Origin: Dehalococcoidia bacterium
GTDB taxonomy: Bacteria > Chloroflexota > Dehalococcoidia > Lucifugimonadales > UBA3495
Direction: 5' to 3'
Assembly: GCA_030740155.1 (NCBI GenBank)
Contig: JASLXV010000064.1
Coordinates: 1 to 17,974, forward strand
Length of the DNA: 17,974 bases
Position numbers and translations under genes: made by a program. This document shows positions 1 through 17,591 of this stretch, one piece after another (position 1 is the stretch's first letter; the number at the start of each line of letters is the position of its first letter). Under the pieces are notes generated by a model, which was not told the origin of the DNA, searched no databases, and saw only the letters and a list, made by a program, of their open reading frames with translations.

Positions 1-140
1 ACAGCGCAGAAAGGAGGTGAAGGCTCAAACGATCGATAGGCGAAGACTTCATAACCGGACCCTCAGGCAGCTCACCCAAGCTCTTCCACACCTCTGATCT
101 CTCGGGTCCCAAACTGTCCCATTTGTGCTGGTTGCCAACA

Positions 141-695
141 ATGGCGCGCACCCCCACTGTAACCCGAGACCAAGTACCCGAGAAGTACCGTGAAGCCTTC
201 GACCATGAAGTGGCCATTAGCCGAGGCAACATGGAAAACGGACCGGGATCGGTGATGATCAACAGCCCCGAGATGCGAAAACGCGCCAATCACCTGGTCT
301 TTTACTTCAGGGAGCAGTCGGAACTGCCGCAGAAGATTCAAGAGATGGCGATGATCTTGACCGCGAGGGCCAAGGACTGCCAATACATTTGGTTCGCCCA
401 CGCCGCCAGGGCTCGTCAACAGGGAATCAGCAACGAGTTCGCGGACGCGCTCCGGGACAAAAAGCCCCTGCCCAAACTGCCACCCGACGAACAGATCGTC
501 GTGGACTACGCAACCGAACTGTTCACCACCAACCGGGTCAGCCAGGGGACGTTTCAAGCCGCTCTGGACCATTTCGGAGCCCTGCTACTGACGGAGTTGA
601 CCACTATGATGGGGTACTACTCCCTGCTCGCCCTGAACGTCAACGCCTTCGAGGTCGACGTTCCTGAAGGGGGCGAGAAGCCACTGGTGGTTTAG
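141..695 (+). CDS. Carboxymuconolactone decarboxylase / AhpD-like family protein
   Basis: ORF of ~184 aa from ATG 141. It has the CMD-like pattern ELPQKIQEMAMILTARAKDCQYIWFAHAARARQQGIS and a typical C-terminus, ELTTMMGYYSLLALNVNAFEV. No SD directly upstream, so the start is uncertain. Confidence 0.8.
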   Translation: MARTPTVTRDQVPEKYREAFDHEVAISRGNMENGPGSVMINSPEMRKRANHLVFYFREQSELPQKIQEMAMILTARAKDCQYIWFAHAARARQQGISNEFADALRDKKPLPKLPPDEQIVVDYATELFTTNRVSQGTFQAALDHFGALLLTELTTMMGYYSLLALNVNAFEVDVPEGGEKPLVV

Positions 696-882
696 GAAAC
701 AGGGTCTAACCGTATACGGAACCGGTAGACCAAGGCTGCGGCGCCCCGGCGGCCATCACAATTGGGACCCGGCAGGACCCCGGGGAGTCAGGGGTGTGGA
801 TGCCGGCCGGCCCTCCCCATGACCGGGGCGCCGGCATCAAGCGGGAATTTACCTGCCGCCCGATGCCGGGCCAATTCTCCGT

Positions 883-1686
883 CTAATTTAGCCCTTCCTC
901 GCCCATCCATTGTGGCGAGCGCTTCTCCACGAAGGCTCGCATCCCCTCGAGCCGGTCGGGGGAATTCACCTGTCGGTCCACCCAGAAGTAGCTATTGTTC
1001 ATGGCCGCTTCCAGAGGCAGGTCGAGCCCGGTCGTCGCCGCCTGCTTGCTGCCACGGACCGACATGGGCGCGCACTCCATTACTTCATTGGCCCATCGCT
1101 CCGCGGTGGCCAGCAGGTCCGCCAGGGGTACTACCTCGTTGGCCAGACCCAGGCGGTAGGCGTCCTGCGCCGAAAGGCGCTTGCCGGTCAGCATCATTCC
1201 CATGGCCACCTTCATGGGAACCTGGCGGGGGAGACGGTGCATCCCGCCGGCGCCCGCCGTCAGGCCCACTCGCGGCTCCGGCAGGCCAAACTCGGCGTGG
1301 TCGGCGGCGATGATGATGTCGCACGCCAGAGCCAGCTCGAAGCCACCTCCCAGGGCGAAGCCGTTGACCGCGGCGATCACCGGTTTCCACAGCTTGAACC
1401 GGGGATTCGTGAACCCGCCAAAGCCTCCTAGCGGCGGCAATGGCGGCCGTTCCCCCGAAAGGGCCAATTCGGTCGAGAACTTCAGGTCGTTACCCGCGCT
1501 GAATGCCTTTTCTCCTGCTCCGGTGATTATGGCAACCCGGAGATTAGGGTCGGAGTCGAAGTCCTCCCAAACCTTGAACATCTCGTGGTGGGCAAGCACG
1601 TGCAAGGCGTTTCGCACCTCCGGCCGGTTGATCGTCACCCAGGCGATGTGGCCTCGTTTCTCGTACTTGACGTATTTAAGATCCAT
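883..1686 (-). CDS. Enoyl-CoA hydratase/isomerase (crotonase) family protein
   Basis: 267 aa with motifs VTINRPEVRNAL, AFSAGNDLK, KPVIAAVNGFALGGGFELALACD and EFGLPEPRVGL (both catalytic-type Glu present). SD AAGGAGG upstream. Confidence 0.95.
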   Translation of the reverse strand: MDLKYVKYEKRGHIAWVTINRPEVRNALHVLAHHEMFKVWEDFDSDPNLRVAIITGAGEKAFSAGNDLKFSTELALSGERPPLPPLGGFGGFTNPRFKLWKPVIAAVNGFALGGGFELALACDIIIAADHAEFGLPEPRVGLTAGAGGMHRLPRQVPMKVAMGMMLTGKRLSAQDAYRLGLANEVVPLADLLATAERWANEVMECAPMSVRGSKQAATTGLDLPLEAAMNNSYFWVDRQVNSPDRLEGMRAFVEKRSPQWMGEEGLN

Positions 1687-1785
1687 TCTTCGCCTCCTTC
1701 ATATGCAAGTCGCAGCCTGGTTGAGAGCAGTCCGAAGGCGCGGTGGTTGTTCAATCCGCGTGCGGCGGGCCGCCACTCCGAAAGC

Positions 1786-1791
1786 ATTATA
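1786..1791 (-). promoter_or_regulatory. Candidate -10 box (TATAAT) for the crotonase gene
   Basis: Perfect TATAAT on the minus strand ~100 nt upstream of the crotonase start. The -35 match is weak. Confidence 0.4.
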
Positions 1792-1882
1792 CTTCGTCCC
1801 ACCGGCAACGGAAACAAAATAAGATGTAGGGCGCGGCCCCGTGAAGCCGCAAGCGGAATCCACGCCCTGAACGACGATTCTG

Positions 1883-1911
1883 TTTACAACTCAAGGGCTA
1901 CGTTGTACTAT
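1883..1911 (+). promoter_or_regulatory. Sigma70-type promoter of the thiolase/DUF35 operon
   Basis: TTTACA (1883-1888), 17-nt spacer, TACTAT (1906-1911), then SD AAGGAG and ATG 1943. Overlapped by the inverted repeat TACAAC-N11-GTTGTA. Confidence 0.6.
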
Positions 1912-1942
1912 ACGCCAAGCAACAGGTAAGGAGTTGTGAGCC

Positions 1943-3121
1943 ATGAGTCTCAGGGGCAAAGCTTGCATAATTGGCATCGGCGAGACGCCGCATCGGAGGA
2001 ACTGGCCAGGTAGGACCGAGCGCGGCCTGTGCGCTGAGGCCGCTGCCATGGCCATCGCCGACGCCGGTCTCCGCAGAGAGGACATCGACGGCCTCATCAC
2101 CTTCGGGGGTCCGACCTACCCCGGACCCATGGCAGAGTACATCGGAGTCCGCCCGATCCATTACCAGGCGGGCGTGAGCATGATGGGCTCGAGTTCCGGG
2201 GTGGCCCTCACAACGGCCGCGGCCGTGGTTCACTCCGGGATTGCCAAGTACATCCTCTGCGTGTTCGGTGGGGGGCGCGACGTCGCCTGGGACCGGCGCA
2301 TGCTGGTCGTCGGGCCCAACACGCGCACCGAGTTCGAAGACCCCTACGGGATGGCTGCCGGGGCCAACACGATGTACGGGCTCCTCTACACCCGGCACAT
2401 GCACGAGTACGGCACCAAACCCGAGCAGCTTGCCAAGTTGGCGGTGGACCAACGGTTCAACACGCTGAAGAACCCTCGCTCCGCGTTCGCCGCCGCCGGG
2501 CCCATCACTATCGACGATGTTCTCGCCTCCCGTTACGTAAACTACCCCCTGCACCTGCTGGAGTGCGTCATGCCGGTTGCCGGCGCCGCAGCCTACATCG
2601 TGGCCTCGCCGGACAACGCCAAAGCGTCTCCCAACCCTCGCGTCTTCGTCCTCGGGGCAGGCGTCCACGGGGGGTACGCGTCGAGCTGGACAAACCCCAG
2701 GATGACCACGGTGCCAGCGGCCATATCGGCCCGAAGCGCCTTCGAGATGTCCGGGTATAGCCCGAATGATATAGAGTTCGCTGAATTCTATGATTGATAC
2801 ACCATCCTCGCGGCCGTGAGCCTCGAAGATGCCGGATTCTGCAAGAAGGGTGAGATTGGTCCCTTCCTGGAGTCTACGGACCTGACTTACAACGGGACCT
2901 TCCCGGTCAACACCGATGGCGGCCAGCTCTCGTCGGGCCAGTTGAATCCCGCCGGGGCCAGCGGGTGCCAGCAGATCCTGGAGGCGTTCCGCCAGTTGAC
3001 AGGCCGCGCCGCCGAAGAGGGGCGCCAGGTATCCAAACACGACTTGTGTATGATCAACACTTGAGGGGGACCTCCGGGACAGATGGTCTCGGCAGTTCTC
3101 GGCACCGAAGCCGCCCTCTAG
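1943..3121 (+). CDS. Thiolase-superfamily (SCP2-thiolase/Ltp2-like) protein, predicted selenoprotein with two in-frame UGA codons (U285, U374), 392 aa
   Basis: One continuous frame: ACIIGIGET...AIADAGLRREDIDGL...IEFAEFYD-TGA(2795-2797)-YTILAAVSLEDAGFCKKGE...PVNTDGGQLS...EAFRQLTGRA...LCMINT-TGA(3062-3064)-GGPPGQMVSAVLGTEAAL-TAG(3119-3121). Read-through gives a normal thiolase length and ends just before the DUF35 start. Confidence 0.85.
2803..2831 (+). promoter_or_regulatory. Candidate bacterial SECIS hairpin after UGA 2795-2797
   Basis: CAUCCUCGCGGC [CGUGA] GCCUCGAAGAUG: 10 of 12 positions pair. The loop starts 17 nt after the UGA and has G at loop position 2. Confidence 0.65.
3066..3100 (+). 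promoter_or_regulatory. Candidate bacterial SECIS hairpin after UGA 3062-3064
   Basis: GGGGAC-CU-CCGGGAC [AGAUG] GUCUCGG-CA-GUUCUC: 7-bp upper stem and 6-bp lower stem (with G-U pairs). The loop starts 16 nt after the UGA and has G at loop position 2. Confidence 0.6.
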
Positions 3122-3132
3122 GATGGATGACC

Positions 3133-3549
3133 ATGACTAACCAATATGAAAAGCCGCTTCCTATCCCAGAGAACCCGGCGCCTACCCGGCCCTACTGGGA
3201 GGCGGCGAAACGGCACGAACTGGTACAGCCCCGCTGCAAGAGGTGCAACGACTTCTTCTGGTATCCCAGGGAGCAGTGCCCCAACTGCTTCTCCCAGGAC
3301 CTGGAATGGGTGACCGTCAGCGGCAAGGGTAAGGTCTACGCCTACACCATCGTCTACCAGACGACGCACCCCGCCTTCCAGGATGATGCGCCCCACGTCC
3401 TGGCCGCCATCGACCTGGAGGAGGGCACCCGGCTGATTTCCAACGTGATAGGGTGCCCCGTTGAGGATGTCAAGATCGACATGCCGGTGACCGTTGTCTT
3501 CGACGACGTAACTCCGGAGTGGACGCTGCCCAAATTCAAGCCTGCTTAA
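3133..3549 (+). CDS. Zn-ribbon/OB-fold protein (DUF35 / ChsH2-like), thiolase partner
   Basis: KPLPIP...PYWEAAKRHELVQPRCKRC...YPREQCPNC (CxxC-x10-CxxC), then VSGKGKVYAYT and IDLEEGTRLISNV. Start at ATG 3133 (or 3127), directly after the thiolase TAG. Confidence 0.92.
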   Translation: MTNQYEKPLPIPENPAPTRPYWEAAKRHELVQPRCKRCNDFFWYPREQCPNCFSQDLEWVTVSGKGKVYAYTIVYQTTHPAFQDDAPHVLAAIDLEEGTRLISNVIGCPVEDVKIDMPVTVVFDDVTPEWTLPKFKPA

Positions 3550-3600
3550 AGCCGGTCCCAGTAGCCGGCAACCGGCACAGTTGGACTCTCTCTCCAAACC

Positions 3601-3632
3601 GTCATTCCGATAAGCGAAGCGACGAAGAATCT
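3601..3632. repeat. Degenerate REP-like half element
   Basis: GTCATTCCGATAAGCGAAGCGACGAAGAATCT resembles the widespread GTCATTCTGAGCGAAGCGAAGAATCT-type intergenic palindromic repeat. Single, degenerate copy. Confidence 0.35.
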
Positions 3633-3811
3633 AGTGCGGGGTCCCGCCACGGGACCACCGATCTCCGTGAATCGCTCAACCTCCGGCGCTTAGGCGCCGT
3701 CCAGCATCGGGATAGCCGTTTTCATTGACACCATGTACCTCTTCCTTCAGTGTGGAGTTTGCCTTACATCGGAATTCCGCCGTTTGGCATGAACTCACTG
3801 GGAGGTCCGCC

Positions 3812-4774
3812 ATGGGCATCGTTAACACGGTCCTTGGACCCATAGATTCCAGCGAACTGGGAGTCACCCTCAGCCACGAGCACATCGCCACGGGGTCGGC
3901 CGGAATGCACCGAACCTATCCCCAATTCTTCGACCGCGAGACCGTGATACGGGACGCCGTTGCAGCCTTGAAGGAGGCCCATGCCGAGGGGATTAGGTCC
4001 TACATCGAGCCCACCACCTTCGACATGGGCCGGGATATCGAGCTGATACAAGAGGTATCCAGACTGAGCGGCGTCCACATCGTCGCCGCCACCGGCAGCC
4101 ACCAAGCCATACCCCGCGTCTTCCGCACCGCGTCTCCTGACGCCATCGCGCCTCTGTTTATCAAAGAGGTGGAAGAGGGCATCGAGGACACGGGCGTCAA
4201 AGCAGGAATCATCAAATCGGCCAGCGACAGAGGTGGCGTAACCGATCTGGAGGAGACCGTGCTTCGGGCCGTCGCCAGGGCCAGCAAGCACACCGGGGCG
4301 CCCGTCTTCACCCACACCTGGTCTCCCGACCGGGTGGGGGAGCAACAGGTCCGCATCCTCCAGGACGAAGGTATGGACATGAGCCGAGTCTACATTGGAC
4401 ACAGCAACGACACCCGGGACGTGGACTACATCGTCGGACTGCTCGAGACCGGGGTTTGGGTCGGCTTGGACCGGTTTCCCGGTGGCCGGTTCCCGGGCGT
4501 CCCACTCTGGCAAGAGCGCACCCAAATCGTCAAGCGACTGATCGATGAGGGCTGGGGTGGACGGATCATGCTGGGCCACGACTACTCCTTGCCCAGCGGC
4601 CAACCTACGCCGGAGATGCGGGAGCAGCGGGCCAAGTATCAACCGGAGGGGTACAGCTTCATATCACGGCATGTCCTGCCCTACTTGAAGGAGCTGGGAG
4701 TTACCGGCGACGCCATCCAACAGATCATGGTCGAGAACCCGCGCCGGTTTCTGGAAGGACCGGCCACCCGCTAG
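3812..4774 (+). CDS. Phosphotriesterase-like (PTE/PHP) amidohydrolase-superfamily protein
   Basis: ATG 3812 after SD GGAGG. Motifs VNTVLGPI...LGVTLSHEH (HxH), GIIK, FTHT, IGHS, LGHD and IMVENPRRFL; 320 aa. Confidence 0.92.
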   Translation: MGIVNTVLGPIDSSELGVTLSHEHIATGSAGMHRTYPQFFDRETVIRDAVAALKEAHAEGIRSYIEPTTFDMGRDIELIQEVSRLSGVHIVAATGSHQAIPRVFRTASPDAIAPLFIKEVEEGIEDTGVKAGIIKSASDRGGVTDLEETVLRAVARASKHTGAPVFTHTWSPDRVGEQQVRILQDEGMDMSRVYIGHSNDTRDVDYIVGLLETGVWVGLDRFPGGRFPGVPLWQERTQIVKRLIDEGWGGRIMLGHDYSLPSGQPTPEMREQRAKYQPEGYSFISRHVLPYLKELGVTGDAIQQIMVENPRRFLEGPATR

Positions 4775-5083
4775 CAACGTTGGTCCGCCTGCCCGCCAGA
4801 AAGGGTGGCACTCTATCCCCAGGTATTCATTATGAGGCATTCGCGTTAGACACGGATTGTTTGGTGATTACAATCAACCTACCCCAAAGTCATGGTGGAT
4901 ACGATTGTCTGCCACACGAGGTAGCTTCCAGCGACGGCCTGTCGATGGGAGGCCCGGCACAACGTCCGACCCGCGTCGCATGAGATAGTTACCACGATGG
5001 CTCCAAGCGTCGGGCTTCGGGGACAAGTTCTTAGTTAAGCCGGCGGTTGATGTCCCCAACAACAACCCAAAAGGAGCGACTAT

Positions 5084-5330
5084 ATGCTTTTCATGATCAC
5101 CCAGGTTCATACTCCTGAGGCTTGCCCCTTCGGCGAAGGGGGGGTTGGATATCCTCTTCAACAAGAATGCAAAAGGCATCACCCTGAAAGGGCGCTGGGG
5201 GGCCTGGGCCCACCACACCATCTGGTACCTCGTGGAGGCCGAAGACGCCGCGGCCATCCAGGGTTCCTTGGAGCCCGGGTTTAAGCGGTCCACGGCCACG
5301 GTCGAGCCTGTGGGAGATGCGTCCATCTAG
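5084..5330 (+). pseudogene. Small (81 aa if restored) DUF3303/GYD-like ferredoxin-fold protein, frameshifted in a G7 run
   Basis: SD AAGGAG, then MLFMITQVHTPEACPFGEGG. Removing one G from 5138-5144 joins it to LDILFNKNAKGITLKGRWGAWAHHTIWYLVEAEDAAAIQ...ATVEPV. The family call is tentative. Confidence 0.6.
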
Positions 5331-5814
5331 CGGTGTCCGGCACGACAGGCTGATGCAGCCTCTTCCAACACCAGCAGGGTCTCGACAGTTCTTAGTGGGC
5401 TAGTTCCGCCTCCAAGAGGCATAGTTGGTCGACACTCTGCTGGTATAAGCTGTCCCCGGCGCCCAGGTCAAGACCACCGGCAACGTTGCTGAGGCCGGCC
5501 GGGGAGGGGGCGTCTTAGATCGAAGCCGGGCGTAGTGTGGCTGATGACCTCAGAGCGTGAAGCGTTCGCCGGGCTCGGCGAAACAACTAAACACGCTACG
5601 GCGGAGCCGGCCGCAGACCCGGAATCCGCGGGCCGGTCGAGATGGAGACCGGGCTGACACACCCGGACTTCGACTGACTTCCCCGTAACAACCGCGGGTG
5701 GCTCGCGAATCACGAACTGGGAAGCCGGCGATTGGCACGGGGCTGTCCACTACGAAACGCCCAGGGGGCTGAGCGATGGGACCAGGACAAGATGGCGGCA
5801 GGGAGCCCGGAGAC

Positions 5815-7245
5815 ATGGCCGCGGAACCGATGGCTGTCGCCTATGCCCGGTTCAGGCGAGATTACCCCGCGTACGAAACCACCACCTCGCTGGACGATCT
5901 GCGTGCCCGGGAGTACGGCCGCCTCGAAGAGCAGAATCAGCCGTACCTGGACTATACCGGTGGCGGGCTATACGCCGACTCCCAGTTGCAGGACCACCTG
6001 GGGCTGCTAAGGCAAGGGGTGTTAGGCAATCCCCACTCCACGAGCCCGGCGTCTGAGGCGAGCACCATTTTGGTGGATCGCGCCCGAAACTACGTTCTGG
6101 AGTATTTCAACGCATCACCCGAAGAGTACGTGGCCATCTTCACCCCCAACGCCACCGGGGCCATCAAGCTCGTGGGAGAATCGTACCCCTTCGGCCCGGG
6201 GGGGCAATACCTGCTGACCTTCGACAACCACAACTCGATCAACGGCATACGCGAGTTCGCCCGGGCCAAAGGGGCCAGCGTGACCTACGTCCCGGTGATG
6301 CCACCGGAACTCCGGCTGGATGAGAACAGACTGGCCGGTGGCCTGGGCGACGCTCAAGCGGGAAGCAACAACCTGTTCGCTTACCCAATACAATCCAACT
6401 TCTCCGGAGTTCAGCACCCGCTGGAGTGGATAGCCGAGGCCCAAGCAAAGGGATGGGATGTACTGGCCGACTGCGCGGCTTTTCTGCCAACCAATCGGCT
6501 GGACCTGAGCAAATGGCACCCGGACTTCGTTCCCCTCTCGTTCTACAAAATCTTTGGCTACCCCACGGGAGTCGGGTGCTTGCTGGCCCGCAAGGCCGCA
6601 CTGGCCAAACTCTCCAAGCCCTGGTTTGCCGGTGGAACCATTACCATGGCCTCAGTCCAGGCCGACGACCGTTTCTTGGCCGAAGGCGAGGCGGCCTTCG
6701 AAGAAGGGACCATTAACTACCTCAACCTGCCTGCCGTGGAGATAGGTCTCAAACACGTTGCAGCCGTCGGAGTGGACAAGGTTCACGCGAGGGTAGCCTG
6801 TCTGACCGGTTGGATGTTGGAGGACCTGATATCCATAAGGCACGGAAACGGATCGCCGTTAGTCAAGGTGTACGGCCCGACCGATATGATAGATCGTGGC
6901 GGGACGGTTGCTATCAACTTCTATGATCCCAACGGTGACCTAATCGACCATCGGCGGGTTGAAGCTCTCGCCGGCAGCGAGCGAATCTCGCTGAGGACCG
7001 GCTGTTTCTGCAATCCGGGCGCCGGCGAAATAGCCCATGGCTTGACCAAGGAAGATATGGACGAGGCCTTCAAGAACGACGAGAGGATGACCTTCGACCA
7101 GTTTCTCAGCATCCTCGAGCGGCGAGACGGGAAAAGCGCCGGGGCGGTACGAATTTCGCTGGGATTGGTCAGCAACTTTGAAGACGTGTACCGGATGGCG
7201 CTCTTCGCGAGGGGGTTCGTCGACAAGCTCGCGGCGGGTGTCTGA
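5815..7245 (+). CDS. Aminotransferase class V PLP-dependent enzyme (molybdenum cofactor sulfurase / cysteine desulfurase-like)
   Basis: YLDYTGGGLY, GNPHS, FTPNATGAIKLVGE, DNHNSINGIRE, SFYKIFGYPTGVGCL (PLP Lys), LRTGCFCNPGA (persulfide Cys region), GAVRISLG. Alternative starts at 5776 and 5830. Confidence 0.88.
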   Translation: MAAEPMAVAYARFRRDYPAYETTTSLDDLRAREYGRLEEQNQPYLDYTGGGLYADSQLQDHLGLLRQGVLGNPHSTSPASEASTILVDRARNYVLEYFNASPEEYVAIFTPNATGAIKLVGESYPFGPGGQYLLTFDNHNSINGIREFARAKGASVTYVPVMPPELRLDENRLAGGLGDAQAGSNNLFAYPIQSNFSGVQHPLEWIAEAQAKGWDVLADCAAFLPTNRLDLSKWHPDFVPLSFYKIFGYPTGVGCLLARKAALAKLSKPWFAGGTITMASVQADDRFLAEGEAAFEEGTINYLNLPAVEIGLKHVAAVGVDKVHARVACLTGWMLEDLISIRHGNGSPLVKVYGPTDMIDRGGTVAINFYDPNGDLIDHRRVEALAGSERISLRTGCFCNPGAGEIAHGLTKEDMDEAFKNDERMTFDQFLSILERRDGKSAGAVRISLGLVSNFEDVYRMALFARGFVDKLAAGV

Positions 7246-7562
7246 GCACCGGGTGCGCTAGCCGGGTCAGCCCCGTGGGCCATAAGCGAAAGTGGGAAGC
7301 CGCAGAGAGGACCGGAGAGCGAACCCCCTGTTCCTGAACTTGATCCGGCGATACTTGTAGGTGGCCGGCGTATCGGGGATTGCGGCCCCGGAGGGGCTGT
7401 CCTGGCGCCCGGTCGACAGCCCTCTTTCAAGGCACCGACCTGACCGAATTTGAGTCAGACCCACGCTGGAGATGACCCCTGGCCTATTATCGCTCACGGT
7501 CCACATTAATATGATTGGGCCGCTGCCCAGCACCATTTAATCGACGCCAAGGAGGCATCATT

Positions 7563-8588
7563 GTGCCATTCGGAGGCAATGACTGGCTTGCTCAGACCCA
7601 GGAACCGAAGTTGGAGCCGGAGATACCCATCTGCGATCCGTATCACCACTTCTGGGGCTTCCGGACCGCGCGGATTCCCTATCATCGGTATCTTCTTCAC
7701 GAGCTGGCCGATGACATCAACGCCGGTCACAACGTCCGTTCCACCGTGTACGTCGAGGCAAGGTCCATGTACCGTCGTGACGGACCGGAGGAGATGCGCC
7801 CCGTCGGTGAGGTCGAATTCGTCCAGGGTTTGGCCGCCGCCAGCGCGAGCGGTCTCTACGGCCCGGGCAGGGCAGCGGCAGCCATAGTCGGTCACGCCAA
7901 CCTGAACCTGGGCGATAAAGTTGAGCCGGTCCTGGAAGCGTTGCAGGCAGCCAGCCCAAACCGGTTCCGAGGGGTCCGCCACTCCGCTACCTGGGACCCC
8001 CACGCGGAGGTGGAGAACACCTCCGCGTACCAGATACAGGGCCAGATGGCCGGTGATAATTACCGGGCCGGCGCGCGGGTGCTGGCGCGAAAGGGCCTTT
8101 CCCTGGACATTTGGCTGTACTCGCCACAGCTGCCCGAGTTGGCGGATCTCGCCAAGGCCGTCCCCGGCGTGACGATCGTCTTGAACCATATCGGAGGCCT
8201 GCTGCGGGTCGGCCCCTATGCCAACCGGGACGATGAGGTGCTCGCCAATTGGCGAAGCGGCATCGCGGCCGTGGCGGAATGCCCCAACGTCAACGTCAAG
8301 CTGGGTGGCATCGGCATGCCCATCATCGGCTTCGACTGGCATGCCCGGACCGTGCCCATCGGGTCGGAGGAGCTGGCGGAATCCCTGGCGCCCCTGGTAA
8401 ATTACTGCATCGAGAAGTTCGGACCCAGCCGGTGCATGTTCGAAAGCAACTTCCCCGTCGATAAGGTGGCGTACTCCCGCCACGTGCTGTACAACGCCTT
8501 CAAACGGCTGTCCAAGGGCTACTCGGCAACCGAGCGCGCCGGTTTGTTCCACGACAACGCCACTCGCGTATACCGCGTGAACGTATAA
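7563..8588 (+). CDS. Amidohydrolase_2 family protein (COG3618, lactonase-like)
   Basis: GTG 7563 after SD AAGGAGG. Motifs PICDPYHHFW, STVYVE, FRGVRH, VLNHIGG, VNVKLGG and CMFESNFPVDK; 341 aa. Confidence 0.9.
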   Translation: MPFGGNDWLAQTQEPKLEPEIPICDPYHHFWGFRTARIPYHRYLLHELADDINAGHNVRSTVYVEARSMYRRDGPEEMRPVGEVEFVQGLAAASASGLYGPGRAAAAIVGHANLNLGDKVEPVLEALQAASPNRFRGVRHSATWDPHAEVENTSAYQIQGQMAGDNYRAGARVLARKGLSLDIWLYSPQLPELADLAKAVPGVTIVLNHIGGLLRVGPYANRDDEVLANWRSGIAAVAECPNVNVKLGGIGMPIIGFDWHARTVPIGSEELAESLAPLVNYCIEKFGPSRCMFESNFPVDKVAYSRHVLYNAFKRLSKGYSATERAGLFHDNATRVYRVNV

Positions 8589-8676
8589 CCTCCCTACGGG
8601 ACCCGGCGGGATACGCTGGCACGCAGCCCGTGGATCCCTTGGTGAGGCGTTGGGGACGCGGGCGGTGGCTTCGGGG

Positions 8677-9654
8677 CTAATCCCGGAAACCGTACTCCTC
8701 TCTCCACTGCAAGTAGGCGGTGAGACCCGCCGCCAGGTCATGCTCCGCGGTGAAGCCAATGTCGTCACGCAAACGGGAAACGTCCATCCGGGACCTGGAG
8801 CCGCCGAGTGAGACGTCGTTGTCGTCGCCGGGGGAAGCCTCCACCACCCGGATGCCGGGCCGCAGCTCCTGAAGGGCGTCGATGATGTCCCCCAAGGTTA
8901 GCCAGCGTCCGGTGGACACGTTGTAGGCAAAGTGGGAGGGGCTGGGTGCGTCCAACACGCTACAGATCCCGCCGGCTGTATCGGCCACGTAGGTGTAGTC
9001 GCGGCCCAGGCCGCGGTCGCTGACGGCGATGGTCTCGCCGCGGATGATCCTTCCGGTGAGGTCTTTCACGACGGACTGGTTGGCCCGATGGCCGGTAACC
9101 CGCTCCATGGGACCGTAGGGGGAACTCAGGCGGGTAGCCAAGGTCTGGAAGCCGTGCATCTCGCCGAACCGGCGGGTCAACAGCTCGCTGGCGTACTTGG
9201 TCGACTCGTAAAGGGTGTGAGGGTGAAGGTGGGCGTCCTCCCGGAGCACCTCTTCCGGTCCGGGCCGGGTGCCGTAGACCGCGCCGGAGCTGACGTAGAG
9301 GAAGCGTTGGGGTTTTATCCGCCGCGCCAGCTCCAGCAGATTGGTGGTGCCCATGACGTTGACCTCCACGATGGAACGGCTGCGGCTGGCCTCCACTTCG
9401 GGGAGGACCCCGGTAAACACGGCGGCGTGGACAATCTTATCTATGTCATGGTCCTCGGCCTGTTCCAAGTCGCCGGGGGCCAGGATGTCCCCCTGGAGAA
9501 AGGTGACCTGGTCGGCCCAGGGTTGGATATAGCGGGTGAGCAACTCATTGGGCGGCACCAGATCGAAGCAAACGACCCGGTGTCCCCGTTGGGCCAGGGT
9601 TCTCACTATGTTGCCACCGACGAATCCCGTGCCGCCTGTAACCAACGTGGCCAT
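8677..9654 (-). CDS. NAD-dependent epimerase/dehydratase (extended SDR)
   Basis: LVTGGTGFVG (GxxGxxG), HAAV, VNVMGTTNLLE, YVSSGAVYG, YESTK (YxxxK), RDYTYVAD; 325 aa. Confidence 0.93.
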   Translation of the reverse strand: MATLVTGGTGFVGGNIVRTLAQRGHRVVCFDLVPPNELLTRYIQPWADQVTFLQGDILAPGDLEQAEDHDIDKIVHAAVFTGVLPEVEASRSRSIVEVNVMGTTNLLELARRIKPQRFLYVSSGAVYGTRPGPEEVLREDAHLHPHTLYESTKYASELLTRRFGEMHGFQTLATRLSSPYGPMERVTGHRANQSVVKDLTGRIIRGETIAVSDRGLGRDYTYVADTAGGICSVLDAPSPSHFAYNVSTGRWLTLGDIIDALQELRPGIRVVEASPGDDNDVSLGGSRSRMDVSRLRDDIGFTAEHDLAAGLTAYLQWREEYGFRD

Positions 9655-9746
9655 GGCATTACCTTCCTCTCGGAGTGGGTGCCTCTAAGATACCTCAGTG
9701 CGGCTGGATTGGAAACAGCCGCAGCCCGCAAGAAAGGAGAAGCATC

Positions 9747-10139
9747 ATGGAATACTCAATCAATCATGTGCACATCAGGTCGTCAGACTCCCGGGCTTCG
9801 GCATCGTGGTATGAGAAGTACTTCAACGCCAGGATAGTGTCGGAAAGGGAGATCATGCCGGGTACCGTGACCGTGAGCATGGAGGTCGGAGGCCCGGTGC
9901 GCCTCAACATTTCCTCTCAGCCGGCCGGGGCGTCAAAAGAAAGGAGCGCCGCCGAACTGAACCGGCTGGGACTGGAGCACTTCGGATTCGGCGTCTCGGA
10001 CCTGGAGGCGGAACTGGACCGTCTGAAGAAAGCTGGAGTTCGCGTGGTGCTGCCGCTCACAAAGGTGCCGACCGGGGCCCTCCTGGCCTATATTGAAGGG
10101 CCGGATGACGTGCTCATAGAGCTGGTTCAACCCGCCTGA
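9747..10139 (+). CDS. VOC/glyoxalase family protein
   Basis: ATG 9747 after SD AAAGGAG. INHVHIRS...WYEKYF, GLEHFGFGVSDLE, YIEGPDDVLIELVQ; 130 aa. Confidence 0.92.
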   Translation: MEYSINHVHIRSSDSRASASWYEKYFNARIVSEREIMPGTVTVSMEVGGPVRLNISSQPAGASKERSAAELNRLGLEHFGFGVSDLEAELDRLKKAGVRVVLPLTKVPTGALLAYIEGPDDVLIELVQPA

Positions 10140-10226
10140 TACCCCTCGGCGCCACTGTCGCCTACAGGATCAGGTGCGGGTTGTCGCCTGAAAGAAGCTG
10201 TTCCAGCGCCGGTACGGACTTGGTTG

Positions 10227-10375
10227 CTGTCTTGTAAATAGCTTCACCTCGGCGAAATTAGTCGGCGCCCCCCTACAATCGTCTTTCCGGCGAAGGCCGG
10301 AATCCAGAAAGGCGTAGGCTGGTTCCCGGCCTTCGCCGGGAAGACGGGCCGGGTATCGGGGTGTTTACGGGACAG
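10227..10375. repeat. ~150-bp MITE/REP-like element, copy 1
   Basis: Imperfect terminal inverted repeats CTGTCTTGTAAATA ... TGTTTACGGGACAG. Internal palindrome CGTCTTTCCGGCGAAGGCCGGAATCCAG...CTGGTTCCCGGCCTTCGCCGGGAAGACG. Confidence 0.75.
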
Positions 10376-10409
10376 TAGCCTCGTTGGATCGATTCGACTG
10401 GGTCGCTTC

Positions 10410-11894
10410 CTACTCGACGCGGGCCAGCTCCCGCTCGAGCAGTTGCCGGGCCCGGTCCTGGTCGGTCTGCCAGCCTCGTACCCTGCTTCGCTGGTGTTCC
10501 AGACCCTCTCTAGCCCGGCTGATGAGGCTCCTGGTCTCGGCTTGGCTGGGGCTCCCGGCGGCTCCCTTCCCCTGGATGTTGAGCAGAGGATCGATGGCAT
10601 GCCTGATCTGATCCCCGGTCAGGCTGAGAGGTTCTCCCGTTATTTCCTGGGCAACCTGGTCAATCAACCCGCTGTCAACGGAATTCCAGGCTAGCCCCTG
10701 GTCCAACACCCGGGTAACCAGGTTGCCCACGATGCCGTGGGCCAACCGGAAAGGCAACCCTTTTTCGCGCACCAGGAAATCGGCAAGCTCGGTAGCGGTG
10801 CAGAAGTCTCCTGCCGCCCGCTCGAGCATGAGTTCCTTGTTCACTTTAAGGCCCAGCACCATCCTTCTGGCCAGTTTCAGCATGGCTTCTCCCTGACCAA
10901 GGGCGTCCCACAGAGGGGCGACAGCTTCGGTGCTCATATCCCGGCAGTGCATGAAATTGACGTTCTTCTGGACTGCCAGGCTGGACACCAGGGCTCCAAC
11001 CAGGTGCCCGGCTTTGGACTTGATGTGCTCCAGGATGATGGGGTTCTTCTTCTGGGGCATGATGCTGCTGGTCGAGGCCACGTCGTCGCCCACCTCGACG
11101 GTAGCCCACTCGTCGGAGCACCAGAGGTAGAGGTCCTGGGCCAGACGGCTCAAGGTGACACCCATGACCGCGATGGCCGCCAGAAGCTCCGAAACGTAGT
11201 CGCGGGAGGCCACGGCGTCCAGGGTGCTTTCAACTATGCCATCGAAGGCCAACAGGCGGGCTGTCATGTGGCGGTCTATGGCGAAACCCGTTCCGGCAAA
11301 AGCACAAGCGCCCAGAGGGCACAGGTTCAGGCGGGGATAAACCTCCAGCAGGCGCTCTCCGTCCCGCTCCAACGCCAGGGACACGCTGACCAGGTAATGG
11401 CCGAAGGTGGTGGGTTGAGCCGGTTGAAGGTGAGTGTAGCCGGGGGCCACGGTATCGACGTGTTCTCCGGCCAGTTGTAGCAGGGCCTCCCGGAGTTCGA
11501 ACAGGTCTTCCGAGAAGGTGAACAGGGCCTCCCGGGCCGCGATACGAGCAATCGTGGCGTAGATGTCGTTGCGGCTGCGGCCCGTGTGGATTCTGCCCCC
11601 GACATCCACTCCCACCTTCTGAATGAGAGAATGTTCGAAGTTCAGGTACAGGTCTTCCAGGTTGGGATCAAGAGAAGACGCCTCTATCCCCCGCTCCTCC
11701 AACTCGGCCAGTGCCCGAAGCAACGACTTGCCCGCTTCCTGGGTAATAATTCCCTGATCCATCAGCATCAGGGTGTGGACGTGGTTGATCCACATCAACA
11801 GCCGGTAGTCACGCTGGAGGAAGCCCAGGGACCTGGACTTGAACAGGTATTCCACCACCTCTTCGGCCGGCGGGACTTTGATTCTCTCACGCAT
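10410..11894 (-). CDS. argH: Argininosuccinate lyase-like protein (aspartase/fumarase superfamily)
   Basis: ATG 11894 after SD GAAGGAG. HTGRSRND, PGYTHLQPAQPTTFGH, SSIMPQKKNP signature and ATELADFLVREKGLPFRLAHGIVG; 494 aa. It lacks the usual LWGGRF N-terminus, so the substrate is not certain. Confidence 0.8.
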   Translation of the reverse strand: MRERIKVPPAEEVVEYLFKSRSLGFLQRDYRLLMWINHVHTLMLMDQGIITQEAGKSLLRALAELEERGIEASSLDPNLEDLYLNFEHSLIQKVGVDVGGRIHTGRSRNDIYATIARIAAREALFTFSEDLFELREALLQLAGEHVDTVAPGYTHLQPAQPTTFGHYLVSVSLALERDGERLLEVYPRLNLCPLGACAFAGTGFAIDRHMTARLLAFDGIVESTLDAVASRDYVSELLAAIAVMGVTLSRLAQDLYLWCSDEWATVEVGDDVASTSSIMPQKKNPIILEHIKSKAGHLVGALVSSLAVQKNVNFMHCRDMSTEAVAPLWDALGQGEAMLKLARRMVLGLKVNKELMLERAAGDFCTATELADFLVREKGLPFRLAHGIVGNLVTRVLDQGLAWNSVDSGLIDQVAQEITGEPLSLTGDQIRHAIDPLLNIQGKGAAGSPSQAETRSLISRAREGLEHQRSRVRGWQTDQDRARQLLERELARVE

Positions 11895-12023
11895 GATGTG
11901 CCTCTCCTTCGTTACCGGGTTTCGGGCCGGGTTTTCGGGCTGCCGGCCTGCCCTGGTCCAGGGGGCGAACCACTCGCCGGTCGGTGGCCGTGCCCCTTCC
12001 TCTCGGCCGGAGAGGCTAGTGTA

Positions 12024-12173
12024 CAGTCTCGTAAATAGCTTTACTCCAGCGGAATCCTGCGGCATACCCACCACTAGCGTCTTTCCGGCGAAGGCCGGAA
12101 TCCAGCGAAGCGTTGGCTGGTTCCCGGCCTTCGCCGGAAAGACGGGCAGGGCATCAAACCATTCATGAGACAG
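12024..12173. repeat. ~150-bp MITE/REP-like element, copy 2
   Basis: CAGTCTCGTAAATAGCTT ... CGTCTTTCCGGCGAAGGCCGGAATCCAG...CTGGTTCCCGGCCTTCGCCGGAAAGACGGGC ... CATTCATGAGACAG. Same orientation as copy 1 and nearly the same length (150 vs 149 bp). Confidence 0.75.
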
Positions 12174-12177
12174 ATGG

Positions 12178-12690
12178 CTAGCTGGAAATCAAGACCTCGT
12201 CGCCCTCCCAGGAGAAGCGAACGTCAAGATTTTCGCCTTCCGAGATCTCCTTCAAGTAGTCGAAGATCTCCTGGGCCCGCGGGTCCTGCTTCTGGAGCAC
12301 CTCCGGCTCTCGGTTGGAGTTGATCAAGACCGGGATGTAGGTCACCTTCTGTATCCTCTTATCCTGGATGTAGGCTTTGACAATCATGGTCTTGTTGGAA
12401 TCGGCGTGTTTGGCGGCGTGGGACATCACGTCGAACCCAGCGCCTTCCTCGGTGAGCGCTGTAATATTGTTGGCGCGCAGCTTGGCCGGCCGCGAGGGCA
12501 CGAACTGGGGAGCGCCCCGGTCCGACAGAGGCGCTTCCATCTGACCGAAGACTATGTCCGCCTTTCGGAACACATCCCCACAGAAGCGGAAGATGGAGGG
12601 AGGATCTTCGCGGTTTGGGCTTATGTCCCCCACTCCCACCAGGGTAATCGGCTCGCTGGCGCCGGTACTTGACTTCCGTTGCTCGGGCAT
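12178..12690 (-). pseudogene. CapA (PGA_cap metallophosphatase-like) family gene with a large in-frame internal deletion
   Basis: The N-terminal ITLVGVGDI...ADIVFGQMEAPLSDRG...GFDVMSHAAKH joins directly to C-terminal-like DSNKTMIVKAYI...VTYIPVLIN...EPE. Only 170 aa, and the central catalytic motifs are absent. Confidence 0.7.
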
Positions 12691-12763
12691 AGCTACACCT
12701 CTCGTTCCATACTCGCCGGCATTCCCGTATCAGACCGTGGGCGCCCGAAGGTGCCGCCGCGGG

Positions 12764-14422
12764 TCAGCCGCCGGTCTCTATCTCCCTGGTCACGGGAGTC
12801 CCGAAGCCCTCCAGCACCACGCTTCGGCCCGCTTCGCCGCCGACCACGAAGATATTGACGCGCTCCGCGGAGTCCACCACCTGGAGCAGGTGGTCATCGG
12901 GCAGGTCCAGTATCCATCGCCACTGCGGTGCGGGCTGGTTGTCATCGACGAAGTGGTTCTTCGCGAACTTCGCCCTGAATTTGGCGTGATTGAGGATGTA
13001 CTCCTTAGCCCCCTGCTTGGTCACGCCGTCCCTGACGATGGACTTGGCATGGTCCGGAGCGAGCAGGATGTTGAGGTTGATCGAGTGGTCGATGACCTCG
13101 TCATTGGTTGCTATCATGCTGTAGCCGCCGTGGGGCATCGTGGACGAATAGCCGGCAATGGAGGTCAGCACCCGCTCGGCGGTCCAGTTCTGCAGGTCCT
13201 CGCAGTCAACCTGGTGGGACCTGCCGCACACCGTGATGGTGCTGGTCGCGCGGGCATGGCCCCGGTCGACGTGATAGGGTGCCCACGGGCTGCGAAGCTC
13301 GTTCTCGGCGGTCAGGAAAGGCAGCCCTCGAAAAGCCCCGATGGTCGCCATATCCAGATGGCCGGGGTAGTCGTGGCCTATGTTCAGCATTATCAGCCGC
13401 AGGGCGCGGGCCAGCATTACGTTGACGCGGGACGGCTTGCCAACGTCCAGCGCGTTCTGCGCGCCGTTGATGCCCAGCCGCCCGGCGATCGGCCCGTTCA
13501 CCACGAACAGCAAACCCTGGCCGCCCGTCGATTGCGTCAGGTTGCGCAGCGGGAACGGCTTTGTCGCCATGGCCTCTACCGCGGCGATCAGGAGGGGAAG
13601 GTGTTCGGCGGAGCAGCCGGCCATGGCCGCGTTTATGGCCATCTTCTCGACCGTAGCCACGCCCATGCCCGGCTCGACTATCGCCACCACATCTCCCGGC
13701 GCCCTCCGGGTTCCCTTCAGGATGGCCGCCACGGCTTCGGGCGTCGGAGGCAGCAGGGGATAACCGTCGCCCCAGCCGGAGTCGAGGTATTCCCGGTTCA
13801 TGTCCTGGACCGCGTCGTAACGGTCCGACCCATTGAAGGTCAGTACCTCCGTCTCGGCTGGATGCGCGACGCCCTTCGAGCCGTTGCACTGAAGGGATTT
13901 GGTGAGGAGCTGGACTATCTCGTCCACGTTGTCGTCGGTGTAGCTCCTGATGCTCTCCGGGGTAATGCCGGTCAAGACCTCGGGGAACACAACGTAGCGA
14001 AGTTGCTCGACTCCAAAGGCCCCGGCGCTGGCCCGCCAGTCGCCCTCGAACCGTTTGGCCACGAAGCCCACGGTGGGTTTTCCGGCTCGTTCCAGTTCCG
14101 CCATGTCGCGGGCAAGCCACGACGTGCAGGAGCCTCAATCCGCCGTCGCGCCAATGACGACGTCGCACTCCTGCTTGGCCTGCTCCATGATCACCTTGGG
14201 AGCGGGCATCATGCCCGGATAGAAGATGACCTCGCAATCCTGGAACCGCTCTTGCAGGGCCTCACCGACGCGCCGGAGGGCCACCTCACCCCCTCGCTTG
14301 GCATTCCACAGCAAACCGACGCGCTTCCCCTCCAGGGTCAGGGGGACTTGCGCAAGCTCCGCCCGATCTATCTCACCCTCACTAATCGCCACCGGATGTA
14401 AAACCTCTAGGTCGAAAGCCAT
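12764..14422 (-). CDS. UGSC-family (thioredoxin-like) selenoprotein fused to a large uncharacterised C-terminal domain; Sec at codon 96, 552 aa
   Basis: SD AAGGAGG and ATG 14422. ...LEGKRVGLLWNAK...CDVVIGATAD-TGA(14137-14135)-GSCTSWLARDMAELERAGKPTV... continues in frame into GWGDGYPLLPPTPEAV...ATVEKMAINAAMAGC...VVNGPIA. The UxxC motif is UGSC. Confidence 0.9.
14105..14123 (-). promoter_or_regulatory. Candidate SECIS hairpin after the UGSC UGA
   Basis: The stem starts 11 nt after the UGA: GUCGUGG [CUUGC] CCGCGAC, 7 bp including one U-G pair. Confidence 0.6.
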
Positions 14423-14465
14423 TCCAAGTTCCTCCTTGAATCCTGGTGCAGATGCCTGACCTGTC

Positions 14466-15416
14466 TCAAGTCTTTGTACCACTTGTTGCGTAACCCCACA
14501 AGGGTGAGGTAGGACGACCGGCCGGGTGGCTTGAGGGGCAGGCGGCCGACGGGGTCGAGAATGACTGTAACGGACAGGTCGACGAAGATTTCGGCGTGGC
14601 GGCAGCGGAAGAGCCGAGAACCGCCTTGGACGCCCTCAGGCCGTGGGGGATTGGCGGTGACCACGGACCACCTCCGGCCGAAGCGCTCTTCCCGGTGTGA
14701 TCGAGGACAATGGACGTGGCGAAGGGCCTCCTTCCGGAACAAAAAGGTCCTTTCTTCTGCTCCATATCGATTTTCCAGATACGCTTCTGAGTCCGGAACA
14801 CCACGAAGATCAAGGCCACGGTAAGGCCGGCCGCGATAAACGGCATCGTCACCTCGACCCAGCCGGTACCGAAGAGGATGATCGCGGTGTTCACCAGGAC
14901 AAAGAATAGGCGCGCCTCCGTGGGGCCGATCTTGAGGACCGATATTCGAAACTCATTGGTCGCCGCAAAGGACAAGAACATGGTTGCCATGAACGCCCCA
15001 CCCAGCGCCATGAAGGCCATGAACCAGTACCATGGGATGCCGGTAAATACCAGCGCGTAGCCGGCGATGATTGACGCGAGGAAGACGTAATCCAGTAGAT
15101 GGTCCATGTAGTATCCCCACTTCACCAGCCCGGTGTCTCGATACCGGCCCACCGCCCCGTCCAATACGTCGCTGATATATTGGAGGAAGATGAAGAGTGA
15201 AACCGCCCAGAGCCAGTTGATGTTCTCCCTTGCGAGGAAGCTGCAAGCCACAATGCCGATACTCCACAGCAAGGTAAACAGAGTCAGATGATAGGTTTCC
15301 AAGCAGGAAGGCACGCGCGGCGCCATCCAGTTCACCATCCGCTTTTCCGCCTTGGCGAGGAACCAGTCACCCTTCTTCTTGTCGCCGGCAAATCGATCGT
15401 TCCTCATGGTGTTCAC
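14466..15416 (-). CDS. CDP-alcohol phosphatidyltransferase family membrane protein (with an apparent run-on C-terminal tail)
   Basis: Signature DVLDGAVGRYRDTGLVKWGYYMDHLLD (DxxDGxxxR...GxxxDxxxD) and several hydrophobic helices. The ~95 aa after KIDMEQKK look like non-coding run-on. Confidence 0.85.
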   Translation of the reverse strand: MNTMRNDRFAGDKKKGDWFLAKAEKRMVNWMAPRVPSCLETYHLTLFTLLWSIGIVACSFLARENINWLWAVSLFIFLQYISDVLDGAVGRYRDTGLVKWGYYMDHLLDYVFLASIIAGYALVFTGIPWYWFMAFMALGGAFMATMFLSFAATNEFRISVLKIGPTEARLFFVLVNTAIILFGTGWVEVTMPFIAAGLTVALIFVVFRTQKRIWKIDMEQKKGPFCSGRRPFATSIVLDHTGKSASAGGGPWSPPIPHGLRASKAVLGSSAAATPKSSSTCPLQSFSTPSAACPSSHPAGRPTSPLWGYATSGTKT

Positions 15417-15475
15417 AATCCTCTCCTGTGATCAAGATTTGGACGCTTGATGCCGGCCGTAGCCGGATGCGGCAC

Positions 15476-16108
15476 TTAGGCCCCGGTATAGACAACGCTC
15501 GCATCGTGAAGCTCCGGCAGGGGGATAGGAGACAACAATCGCCCCAGACCCATGAGGCCATAAAGCCCGAAGGGAGGCATCCAGGCTACCTGGTCCAGAG
15601 CCAGGCGCATCAACAGCTTGTTCCACAAAGGGCGAGCCGCTAAATAGGCGAAGCGCCCCAAACCAGGGAGAAGAGACAGGGCCAAGACCAGCGGGGTATG
15701 GATGTTGGGGAGCCAGGCGGCAGGACCGGCGGCCCGGTGGCGAATGCTTTTCACCTGGTCCACTACCATAAAGGCCAGTGTCCAGGAGAGGCGCGCCAGG
15801 TTCTGCAATCCTGGAATGGGTATCGGCGCACTCAGGAGAAGGTGTATCCCCAGGTGGTGCAAGGCATCCTGAGCCTGACCCGATGACAGGTGAGCCCGCA
15901 GCATGGCTGCCTGCGAAGACCCAAGTTTGCCCTCTGTCTCCCAACGCTCAATACCACTCGTAAAGAAGGCCTCGGCGGTGCGGTCCGCGGCAGCCAGTTT
16001 GCGCGTCACCGACCGGCGGCAGGCTTTCCAGGAGGGAACGGCGCCCTCGCGCACGTGGGCCAGATCATCTGCGATCAATACTCTGGTCAAAACTCCGGTC
16101 TTTCCCAT
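15476..16108 (-). CDS. Hypothetical membrane-associated protein with a receiver-domain-like N-terminal stub (possible chimeric remnant)
   Basis: Begins RVLIADDLAHVREG (REC beta1-alpha1) after a GGAG SD, then switches to unrelated hydrophobic sequence. Confidence 0.45.
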   Translation of the reverse strand: MGKTGVLTRVLIADDLAHVREGAVPSWKACRRSVTRKLAAADRTAEAFFTSGIERWETEGKLGSSQAAMLRAHLSSGQAQDALHHLGIHLLLSAPIPIPGLQNLARLSWTLAFMVVDQVKSIRHRAAGPAAWLPNIHTPLVLALSLLPGLGRFAYLAARPLWNKLLMRLALDQVAWMPPFGLYGLMGLGRLLSPIPLPELHDASVVYTGA

Positions 16109-16196
16109 CTCGGCTCTCCACGCTCGAACCTATGCTCTTATTTTGCTTCTGGCCCCCGTTTTTGGGCACAGCCCATCGGGGTATTCATGCCCACGC

Positions 16197-16222
16197 AAAA
16201 AGGCCGATCGTTAGATCGGCCT
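16197..16222 (-). terminator. Candidate intrinsic terminator downstream of the response regulator
   Basis: Minus strand reads AGGCCGATC-TAAC-GATCGGCC-TTTTT: a perfect stem followed by a U-tract. It could alternatively be an operator palindrome. Confidence 0.5.
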
Positions 16223-16297
16223 CAGTAAGCAGGGAGATACTTCTCTGGTCTTAGGACTTCAGATCTAGGTCGCTGGGATCAGGACAAGAGCGCCGGC

Positions 16298-16942: not shown

Positions 16943-16947
16943 CGTGC

Positions 16948-17590: not shown

Positions 17591-17591
17591 T

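Follow-up and report, generated by a model that had tools for sequence, protein, structure and literature searches.

Here, we report a gene (positions 1943 to 3121, plus strand) from a Dehalococcoidia bacterium (GenBank assembly GCA_030740155.1) that, judging from its sequence and that of its relatives, is very probably an intact member of a double-selenocysteine family, with both in-frame TGA codons predicted to be recoded for selenium incorporation. The product would have a thiolase fold, which is not listed among known selenoproteins, and two selenocysteine (Sec, U) residues are almost certainly encoded. As an explanation of the whole, we lean slightly toward a double-Sec aldolase that resembles the retro-aldolase CtSal and works with a DUF35 protein. 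The window is the entire 17,974-nucleotide stretch that was analyzed (contig JASLXV010000064.1, positions 1 to 17,974).

Results

The gene was assigned from its frame, Pfam, a predicted model, and a fold match to the Sal/Ltp2-like group. It starts at an ATG (1943), 9 nt downstream of a Shine-Dalgarno-like AAGGAG (1928 to 1933, plus strand), and runs to a TAG (3119 to 3121), giving 392 residues when TGA is read as U. Two TGAs lie in frame, at codon 285 (2795 to 2797, FYD-U-YT) and codon 374 (3062 to 3064, MINT-U-GGPPG). A first-pass annotation made from the letters alone had described a 284-residue open reading frame ending at TGA 2795 to 2797 (context EFAEFYD*YTILAAVSLEDAGFC), with thiolase-like sequence continuing in frame; both points were confirmed, the Pfam domain Thiolase_C_1 spanning residues 251 to 388 of the read-through protein, across both TGAs. 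It had proposed a single Sec site, of which codon 285 stands; the TGA at 3062 to 3064 was missed, even though the gene end that it gave requires this codon to be read through. Searched against NCBIfam release 20, the read-through protein matched generic thiolase-like models only, all below cut-off, and no seleno-thiolase model.

Codons at the two sites were tabulated from 158 tblastn rows (150 loci), 100 of which had at least 40% identity and reached residue 370. Among these 100 rows, which are related and in many cases come from one genus, so that the counts overstate independence, the 285/374 codon pairs were TGA/TGA (25), TGY/TGA (53), TGY/AAY (19), GCA/AAC (2), and TCC/TCC (1). TGA was found at 374 in 78 rows and at 285 in 25, always together with TGA374, making the site named by the first-pass annotation the secondary one. 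Its alignment of UGA with a conserved Cys holds for codon 285 (TGY in 72 rows) and does not extend to codon 374, where the counterpart is Asn and a Cys codon (TGY) occurred in 0 of the 158 DNA rows. The same two TGAs recur among genes only 43 to 82% identical, and stops also occupy both sites in a paralog from this genome (C25, 54% identity); the TGA is common to relatives, and not unique to this assembly. One genus has a tandem pair whose second gene varies between genomes (L040 and L076 versus L039): some have the Sec/Sec form, others an Ala/Asn form in which both Sec have been lost together.

A class-wide search matched 69 of 301 genomes at an E value of ≤1e−70, and all inner stops among the matches listed were TGA. 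Relatives with a name belong to the Chloroflexota, for the most part to Dehalococcoidia and SAR202; genomes of SAR202-type ocean bacteria have up to several copies of the gene, and most sequencing runs containing this DNA were marine. A phylum-level sample had homologs in 8 of 301 genomes, the five outside the class being Ser/Ser or Cys forms with no TGA, and the Atlas clusters matched by a Cys/Asn homolog were all generic thiolase-like ones. Annotation handles both TGAs as stops, and the family is truncated in databases at both sites: among the best 120 database proteins, 69 end just before codon 374 and 18 just before codon 285 (87 of 120 in total), the others being 30 full-length proteins (285/374 residues, Cys/Asn in 27 and Arg/Cys, Ser/Asp, and Arg/Ala in one each) and 3 other fragments. 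Proteins P0086, P0104, and P0120 (Arg/Cys, Ser/Asp, and Arg/Ala) are relatives on long branches whose active sites are degenerate and are possibly noncatalytic partners.

Selection persists past both codons. pN/pS was 0.21 over the 40 codons after TGA285 (0.41 before it), at odds with the relaxed selection that had been considered for this segment, and 0.40 over the 16 codons after TGA374 (0.30 before it), compared with 0.98 in a control beyond the true stop. In 72 of 78 rows, the tail after TGA374 (3065 to 3118, plus strand) has 18 codons. It encodes the model's last beta strand (residues 380 to 387), which in CtSal is an inner one of the C-terminal sheet. Of the TGA374 genes, 2 of 78 use TGA as their final stop, versus 16 of 22 Asn-type genes. 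Contigs from RNA libraries span TGA285 (X15 and X18) and TGA374 (X17) with the codon unaltered; such contigs cannot show strand or level, nor prove transcription, and 14 runs with full DNA are possible sources of this assembly.

The host genome carries selA, selB, and selD over cut-off, selD itself with one TGA, as well as a tRNA-Sec (69.4 bits, over cut-off), so the doubt that Sec machinery might be missing falls away. For 56 of the 69 homolog-bearing genomes, the loci were inspected and the sel genes surveyed. Among 37 TGA-carrying genomes, 34 had selA and selB, 3 had one of the two, and 0 had neither; the respective counts for 19 noncarriers were 13, 1, and 5, the 13 genomes with both having non-Sec forms only at the inspected loci. 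Given the TGA in relatives, the Sec machinery, and the downstream selection, there is good support for the earlier placement of Sec in the YDC motif.

It is very improbable that the TGAs are real stops (a pseudogene, a truncated protein, or a sequencing error) or belong to another genetic code. Their annotation as stops and the weak hairpin 1 described below would fit real stops, yet both codons recur in the divergent genes above, selection continues downstream, and without the tail the last strand would be lost. Another code would fit the ARAGORN output, in which no tRNA-Trp was listed for the host genome, a gap probably due to incomplete assembly (93.7% complete); against it, the UCA tRNA is the tRNA-Sec, and TGA ends many ordinary genes (148 of 415 long open reading frames in the host genome, which indicates the standard code). 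A reassigned code is ruled out by these last two observations.

A hairpin follows each TGA. For hairpin 1 (2804 to 2830, plus strand), the first-pass annotation had given 12-bp arms; the loop CGUGA (2815 to 2819) does begin 17 nt past the TGA, and the 11-nt arms pair at 9 positions and mismatch at 2 (−8.6 kcal/mol). Taken from this gene alone, the hairpin did not exceed chance (z of +0.95 in a 66-nt window; P of 0.18 against synonymous-codon shuffles). It is kept in TGA285 carriers, with 88.6% of cells paired across 22 distinct TGA285 sequences, in one register and with 5 double changes (slid controls, 35 to 46%). Mean energy after codon 285 was −8.4 kcal/mol in TGA sequences versus −4.4 kcal/mol in controls, and 3 of 22 TGA sequences versus 3 of 71 controls beat synonymous shuffles at a P value of ≤0.05.

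Hairpin 2 (3074 to 3092, plus strand; 7 pairs; loop AGAUG at 3081 to 3085; −9.6 kcal/mol) was equaled in stability by 0 of 500 synonymous shuffles, and across the family, the region downstream of codon 374 folded better than such shuffles (P ≤ 0.05) in 46 of 57 TGA sequences versus 6 of 22 controls. A single register paired 63.7% of cells, with 35 double changes (slid controls, 25 to 51%, up to 50.6%); one fixed register fits no better because the stem slides between lineages. U at +23 was present in 61/61 TGA374 and 22/22 TGA285 sequences (controls, 2/21 at 374 and 59/68 at 285), and G at +24 was present in 59/61 and 20/22, respectively (controls, 16/21 at 374, of the Asn type, and 26/68 at 285). 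Both hairpins lie within the published bSECIS limits (loop of 3 to 9 nt, G in the first two loop positions, 16 to 37 nt from the UGA, minimum free energy of ≤−7.5), the distance being 17 nt at site 285 and 16 nt at site 374. Family support for a SECIS-like hairpin is strong at 374 and, by energy, weak at 285.

The host genome was scanned for a G24 in a hairpin loop, and 5,474 of 92,805 TGA triplets matched; the scan signature was derived from the thiolase-fold family itself, so matches within the family are circular. When the matches were ordered by coding potential, those at the top included Prx-like and SelW-like genes as well as four UGSC paralogs, each of a known selenoprotein kind, and the TGA285 and the UGSC TGA of the window were absent from the best 60 rows. 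The Prx-like (HW-U-PYC) gene is at L178:394-972 (minus strand) and the SelW-like (CVP-U) gene at L179:302-610 (minus strand). A second selenoprotein of the window lies at 12764 to 14482 (minus strand), where two UGSC-domain reading frames join in frame via a TGA (ATAD-U-GSC) to give about 550 to 570 residues (NF041046, 110.9 bits versus a cut-off of 125); at least four UGSC paralogs with the same TGA are found elsewhere in the host genome. Two MerB-like (organomercurial lyase-like) genes, at L177:154-843 (plus strand; C89) and about L175:870-1728 (minus strand; C79), each have two in-frame TGAs at apparent MerB cysteine positions, with weak MerB/SaoL matches below cut-off; from their sequences, they are candidate double-Sec MerB-like proteins, unlike the CU motif listed for SaoL.

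The predicted model of the read-through protein had a pLDDT of 92.3 and a pTM of 0.93, and its best solved relative by both sequence and fold was CtSal (PDB 9MYR; E value of 5e−65, TM score of 0.89, identity of only 35%). According to PMC12329534, CtSal uses Tyr302 as base and Cys304 as acid (the Ala, Ser, and His variants of Cys304 are dead), Gln347 and Gln352 stabilize the thiolate, and Gln161 and the Gly391 amide form the oxyanion hole. In alignment, Tyr283 (2789 to 2791), kept in at least 90% of the family, corresponds to Tyr302, and U285, Cys in most homologs, to Cys304. Gln328 and Gln333 (2924 to 2941) correspond to Gln347 and Gln352, Ala141 (2363 to 2365) to Gln161, Gly376 to Gly391, and U374 to Thr389. 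Profile alignments to classical thiolases put Ser83 (2189 to 2191) at the nucleophile position, which is Ala in most homologs (all features on the plus strand).

Class assignment was made feature by feature. Of the Sal type, the YDCY dyad (Sec for Cys), the two supporting Gln residues, and the missing nucleophile Cys are present; the oxyanion-hole Gln161 is absent (Ala141), as is the DUF35 domain within a Shy MaoC hydratase with a Cys3His finger, the DUF35 protein here being standalone, 138 residues long, and of the CxxC...CxxC form. Two thiolase features, classical or SCP2-type, are lacking, namely, the CxS nucleophile Cys (Ser83) and the GHP His (Gln333), which excludes thiolysis by the standard route. 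Ltp2-type enzymes have YDHF and a second catalytic Tyr, where this protein has YDUY and Gln333. On these residues, the enzyme is not a thiolase, nor is it a strict Sal member, lacking Gln161 and the Shy fusion. The first-pass name of thiolase thus fails on the nucleophilic Cys (Ser or Ala) and the GHP His (Gln), and its alternative, aldolase-like, is the better one, CtSal being the closest solved match by sequence and modeled fold. With no nucleophile Cys or GHP His, the CtSal Tyr/Cys/Gln/Gln set, and a DUF35 gene downstream, the protein is most likely acyl-CoA aldolase-like, and by analogy the chances that it would work as a Sal-type acyl-CoA aldolase are a little better than even.

The DUF35/ChsH2 gene (3133 to 3549, plus strand; zinc ribbon and OB fold, PF12172 and PF01796) directly follows. 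A DUF35 gene adjoins 89 of 92 loci and lies downstream on the same strand in 94 of 95 hits; this linkage and the analogy with Sal-Shy predict a complex of the two proteins. A conserved pathway was sought around the loci, and only DUF35 was constant. In 20 wide loci, the neighbors leaned toward acyl-CoA functions (CoA-transferase III in 5/20, enoyl-CoA hydratase in 2, and acyl-CoA dehydrogenase in 2), and neither a MaoC hydratase nor an aldehyde dehydrogenase was among the 124 neighbors scanned of 247 called. A divergent enoyl-CoA hydratase gene of the window (883 to 1686, minus strand; domain match) might supply 3-hydroxyacyl-CoA; it is not a conserved neighbor, such a gene occurring in only 3 of 92 short loci.

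Next to the cassette in 8 short loci, which represent four families and of which 7 are double-Sec, lies a Cys-rich DUF169 gene (for example, L200:5900-6793, L206:5530-6240, L207:9474-10169, and L215:9112-9822) that is absent from the window and may encode a third partner. The remaining window genes include CMD-like (123 to 695), phosphotriesterase-like (3725 to 4774), aminotransferase class V (5776 to 7245), amidohydrolase (7515 to 8588), NAD epimerase (8677 to 9654), glyoxalase-like (9675 to 10139), and argininosuccinate-lyase-like (10410 to 12074) genes, none of them a conserved neighbor of the thiolase-fold family. Elsewhere, the host genome has about ten more noncanonical thiolase-like genes, without TGA.

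Residue 374, set in an N-x-U-G-G context two residues before the oxyanion-hole Gly, is Asn in 120 of 120 members of a sister clade, in which Cys285 is equally fixed (120/120). Among the 30 close full-length proteins, 27 have Asn and 1, the degenerate Arg285 form, has Cys; of 133 distant representatives, 1 has Cys. A quick tree was built from 92 rows (129 before near-copy removal) with site 285 masked, sequences cut before 374, and no bootstrap. On it, the U374 label changed about 8 times, at least 7 of them forced by well-supported branches, and in about five cases Asn forms branched from within Sec clades, so the Asn enzyme seems able to substitute. TGA and AAC are three base changes apart, and no intermediate codon occurred among the rows at ≥40% identity. 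In nine full-length distant representatives with a Sal-type dyad, Gln141 went with Thr374 (2/2) and non-Gln141 with Asn374 (7/7), a pairing which suggests that Asn374 gives the amide that CtSal takes from Gln161.

In the human T2 thiolase, the oxyanion-hole Gly415 follows the acid/base Cys413 at a distance of two residues (PMC6790690), the spacing that separates U374 from G376. Given the oxyanion-hole Gly as placed in PMC12329534 and PMC6790690, U374 is probably in the CxG position. By alignment, two profile alignments ended before the loop, MAFFT was ambiguous, and another profile put Cys369 there at 17% probability. The simplest reading of these sequences is that Sec374 would act at the thioester enolate, in a reaction that the Asn enzyme can also run, and the presence in relatives of Asn rather than Cys points to selenium for carbon-bond chemistry, not redox.

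The same CxG register, inferred from those two papers, would also suit a nucleophilic Sec374 that replaces the lost N-terminal Cys and forms an acyl-selenoester from acyl-CoA; residue 285 would then be the acid/base of a thiolase, acyltransferase, or thioesterase reaction. Selenolates are strongly nucleophilic, and 374 is the more conserved Sec. A nucleophile would be expected to fall back on Cys, yet Cys codons are wanting at 374 and Asn prevails, and the mapping to CxG is unsupported by the alignments (two ending short, with low-confidence Cys369 in its place); we consider this reading unlikely.

Slightly less likely still is a redox or metal-binding pair of residues 285 and 374 (Se-S or Se-Se), protecting or switching a catalytic residue or doing redox chemistry. 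Consistent with such a pair, U374 always occurs with Cys or Sec at 285 (78/78 rows), both Sec were lost together in one lineage (Ala/Asn beside a Sec/Sec sister), the Cys-rich DUF169 gene adjoins 8 loci, 7 of them double-Sec, and the majority of selenoproteins are redox proteins (PMC13188914). Since Cys285 is just as fixed in the Asn forms, the association of 285 with 374 needs no bond, and no Cys/Cys version was found among the homologs.

A further reading is a two-base epimerase or isomerase, not a lyase, with acid/base groups flanking C2 of an acyl-CoA; one active site would then have its HDCF-type and CxG-type positions, the two acid/base positions known in this fold, filled together. Asn is unfit as a second base, however, and the aldolase base Tyr283 is retained in at least 90% of the family, which leaves this reading with a low probability, below that of the preceding two. 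The nucleophile, the redox pair, and the epimerase would each predict a Cys fallback at 374.

Discussion

Under the preferred reading of a double-Sec, CtSal-like aldolase, SelB and tRNA-Sec would decode both UGAs as selenocysteine, guided by the hairpin after each, and the 392-residue product would pair with the DUF35 protein encoded directly downstream, as alpha2-beta2 by analogy with Sal-Shy. The substrate would be of the 3-hydroxyacyl-CoA class, handled as by the CtSal retro-aldolase: Tyr283 would take the hydroxyl proton, the C2-C3 bond would break, and Sec285 (Cys in most relatives) would protonate the CoA enolate with the help of Gln328 and Gln333. Sec374 would sit on the loop supplying the oxyanion-hole glycine, where the invariant Asn of non-Sec relatives appears to replace CtSal Gln161, and would most likely be a hydrogen-bonding or proton-giving group on the thioester enolate, not a redox center. 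Weighing against this reading are the 35% identity to CtSal, Ala141 at the place of Gln161, and the lack of a MaoC hydratase or an aldehyde dehydrogenase among the 124 neighbors scanned. In chemical terms, an ionized selenolate would sit awkwardly beside an oxyanion, and selenols make poor late proton donors, points that would also fit a changed reaction. That this family, widespread among marine Dehalococcoidia/SAR202, is a seleno-aldolase, with Sec serving nonredox acid-base or hydrogen-bond catalysis of C-C cleavage and a core Sec374 repeatedly interchanging with Asn and not Cys, is in our view an even call.

If true, selenium would enter both the thiolase fold and acyl-CoA carbon-bond chemistry. 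Nearly all characterized selenoproteins have redox or metal chemistry and Cys homologs. The natural Sec/Sec, Cys/Sec, and Cys/Asn close relatives form a series for asking what Sec does beyond Cys, and, given the Sec/Asn interchange at 374, some Sec sites escape discovery pipelines that rely on Cys/Sec pairs. With 87 of the best 120 database proteins cut short, the carbon catabolism and selenium demand of SAR202-type bacteria are misannotated.

A 2026 inventory of 119 prokaryotic selenoprotein families (PMC13188914, Table 1), which includes the families of Haft and Tolstoy 2025 (mSystems), lists no thiolase-fold family and reports Cys homologs for nearly all selenoproteins. The term "thiolase" occurs 0 times in the main texts of deep-Sep (PMC12013277), BSepDB (PMC13326102), and Haft and Gwadz (bioRxiv 10.1101/2022.07.06.499078) and 0 times in the deep-Sep and BSepDB supplements (the latter being a partial species list), and a title-level search of mostly open literature returned no title on a seleno-thiolase-type protein. 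The gene shares with known prokaryotic selenoproteins (PMC13188914) an in-frame UGA, a 3′ hairpin 16 to 17 nt away, and dependence on selA/selB, and a few known families likewise have two Sec; it differs in its unlisted fold and in having Asn, not Cys, as the usual counterpart at 374.

Among thiolase-fold enzymes, SCP2-type (HDCF) and classical thiolases (CxS, NEAF, GHP, CxG) share the fold and the Cys/Sec at the HDCF position, with Sec374 probably at CxG, whereas the present protein lacks the CxS nucleophile and the GHP His and has Tyr for His before Asp. The Ltp2-ChsH2(DUF35) aldolase (PDB 6OK1) is alike in fold (TM score, 0.86 to 0.88), first catalytic Tyr, and DUF35 partner; its YDHF motif and second Tyr (Tyr344) are matched here by Sec285 and Gln333. 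Sal-type aldolases are defined by retro-aldol cleavage of steroid 22-OH-CoA side chains. Closest is CtSal, the bile-acid side-chain retro-aldolase of Comamonas testosteroni that acts with the Shy DUF35 domain (9MYR; PMC12329534), with the same fold, a YD(C/U)Y dyad, equivalents of Gln347 and Gln352, no N-terminal nucleophile, and a DUF35 partner. At 35% identity, the present protein departs from CtSal at Cys304 (here Sec), Thr389 (Sec or Asn), and Gln161 (Ala), and its DUF35 partner is standalone with four Cys, whereas that of CtSal is fused to a MaoC hydratase and has a Cys3His finger.
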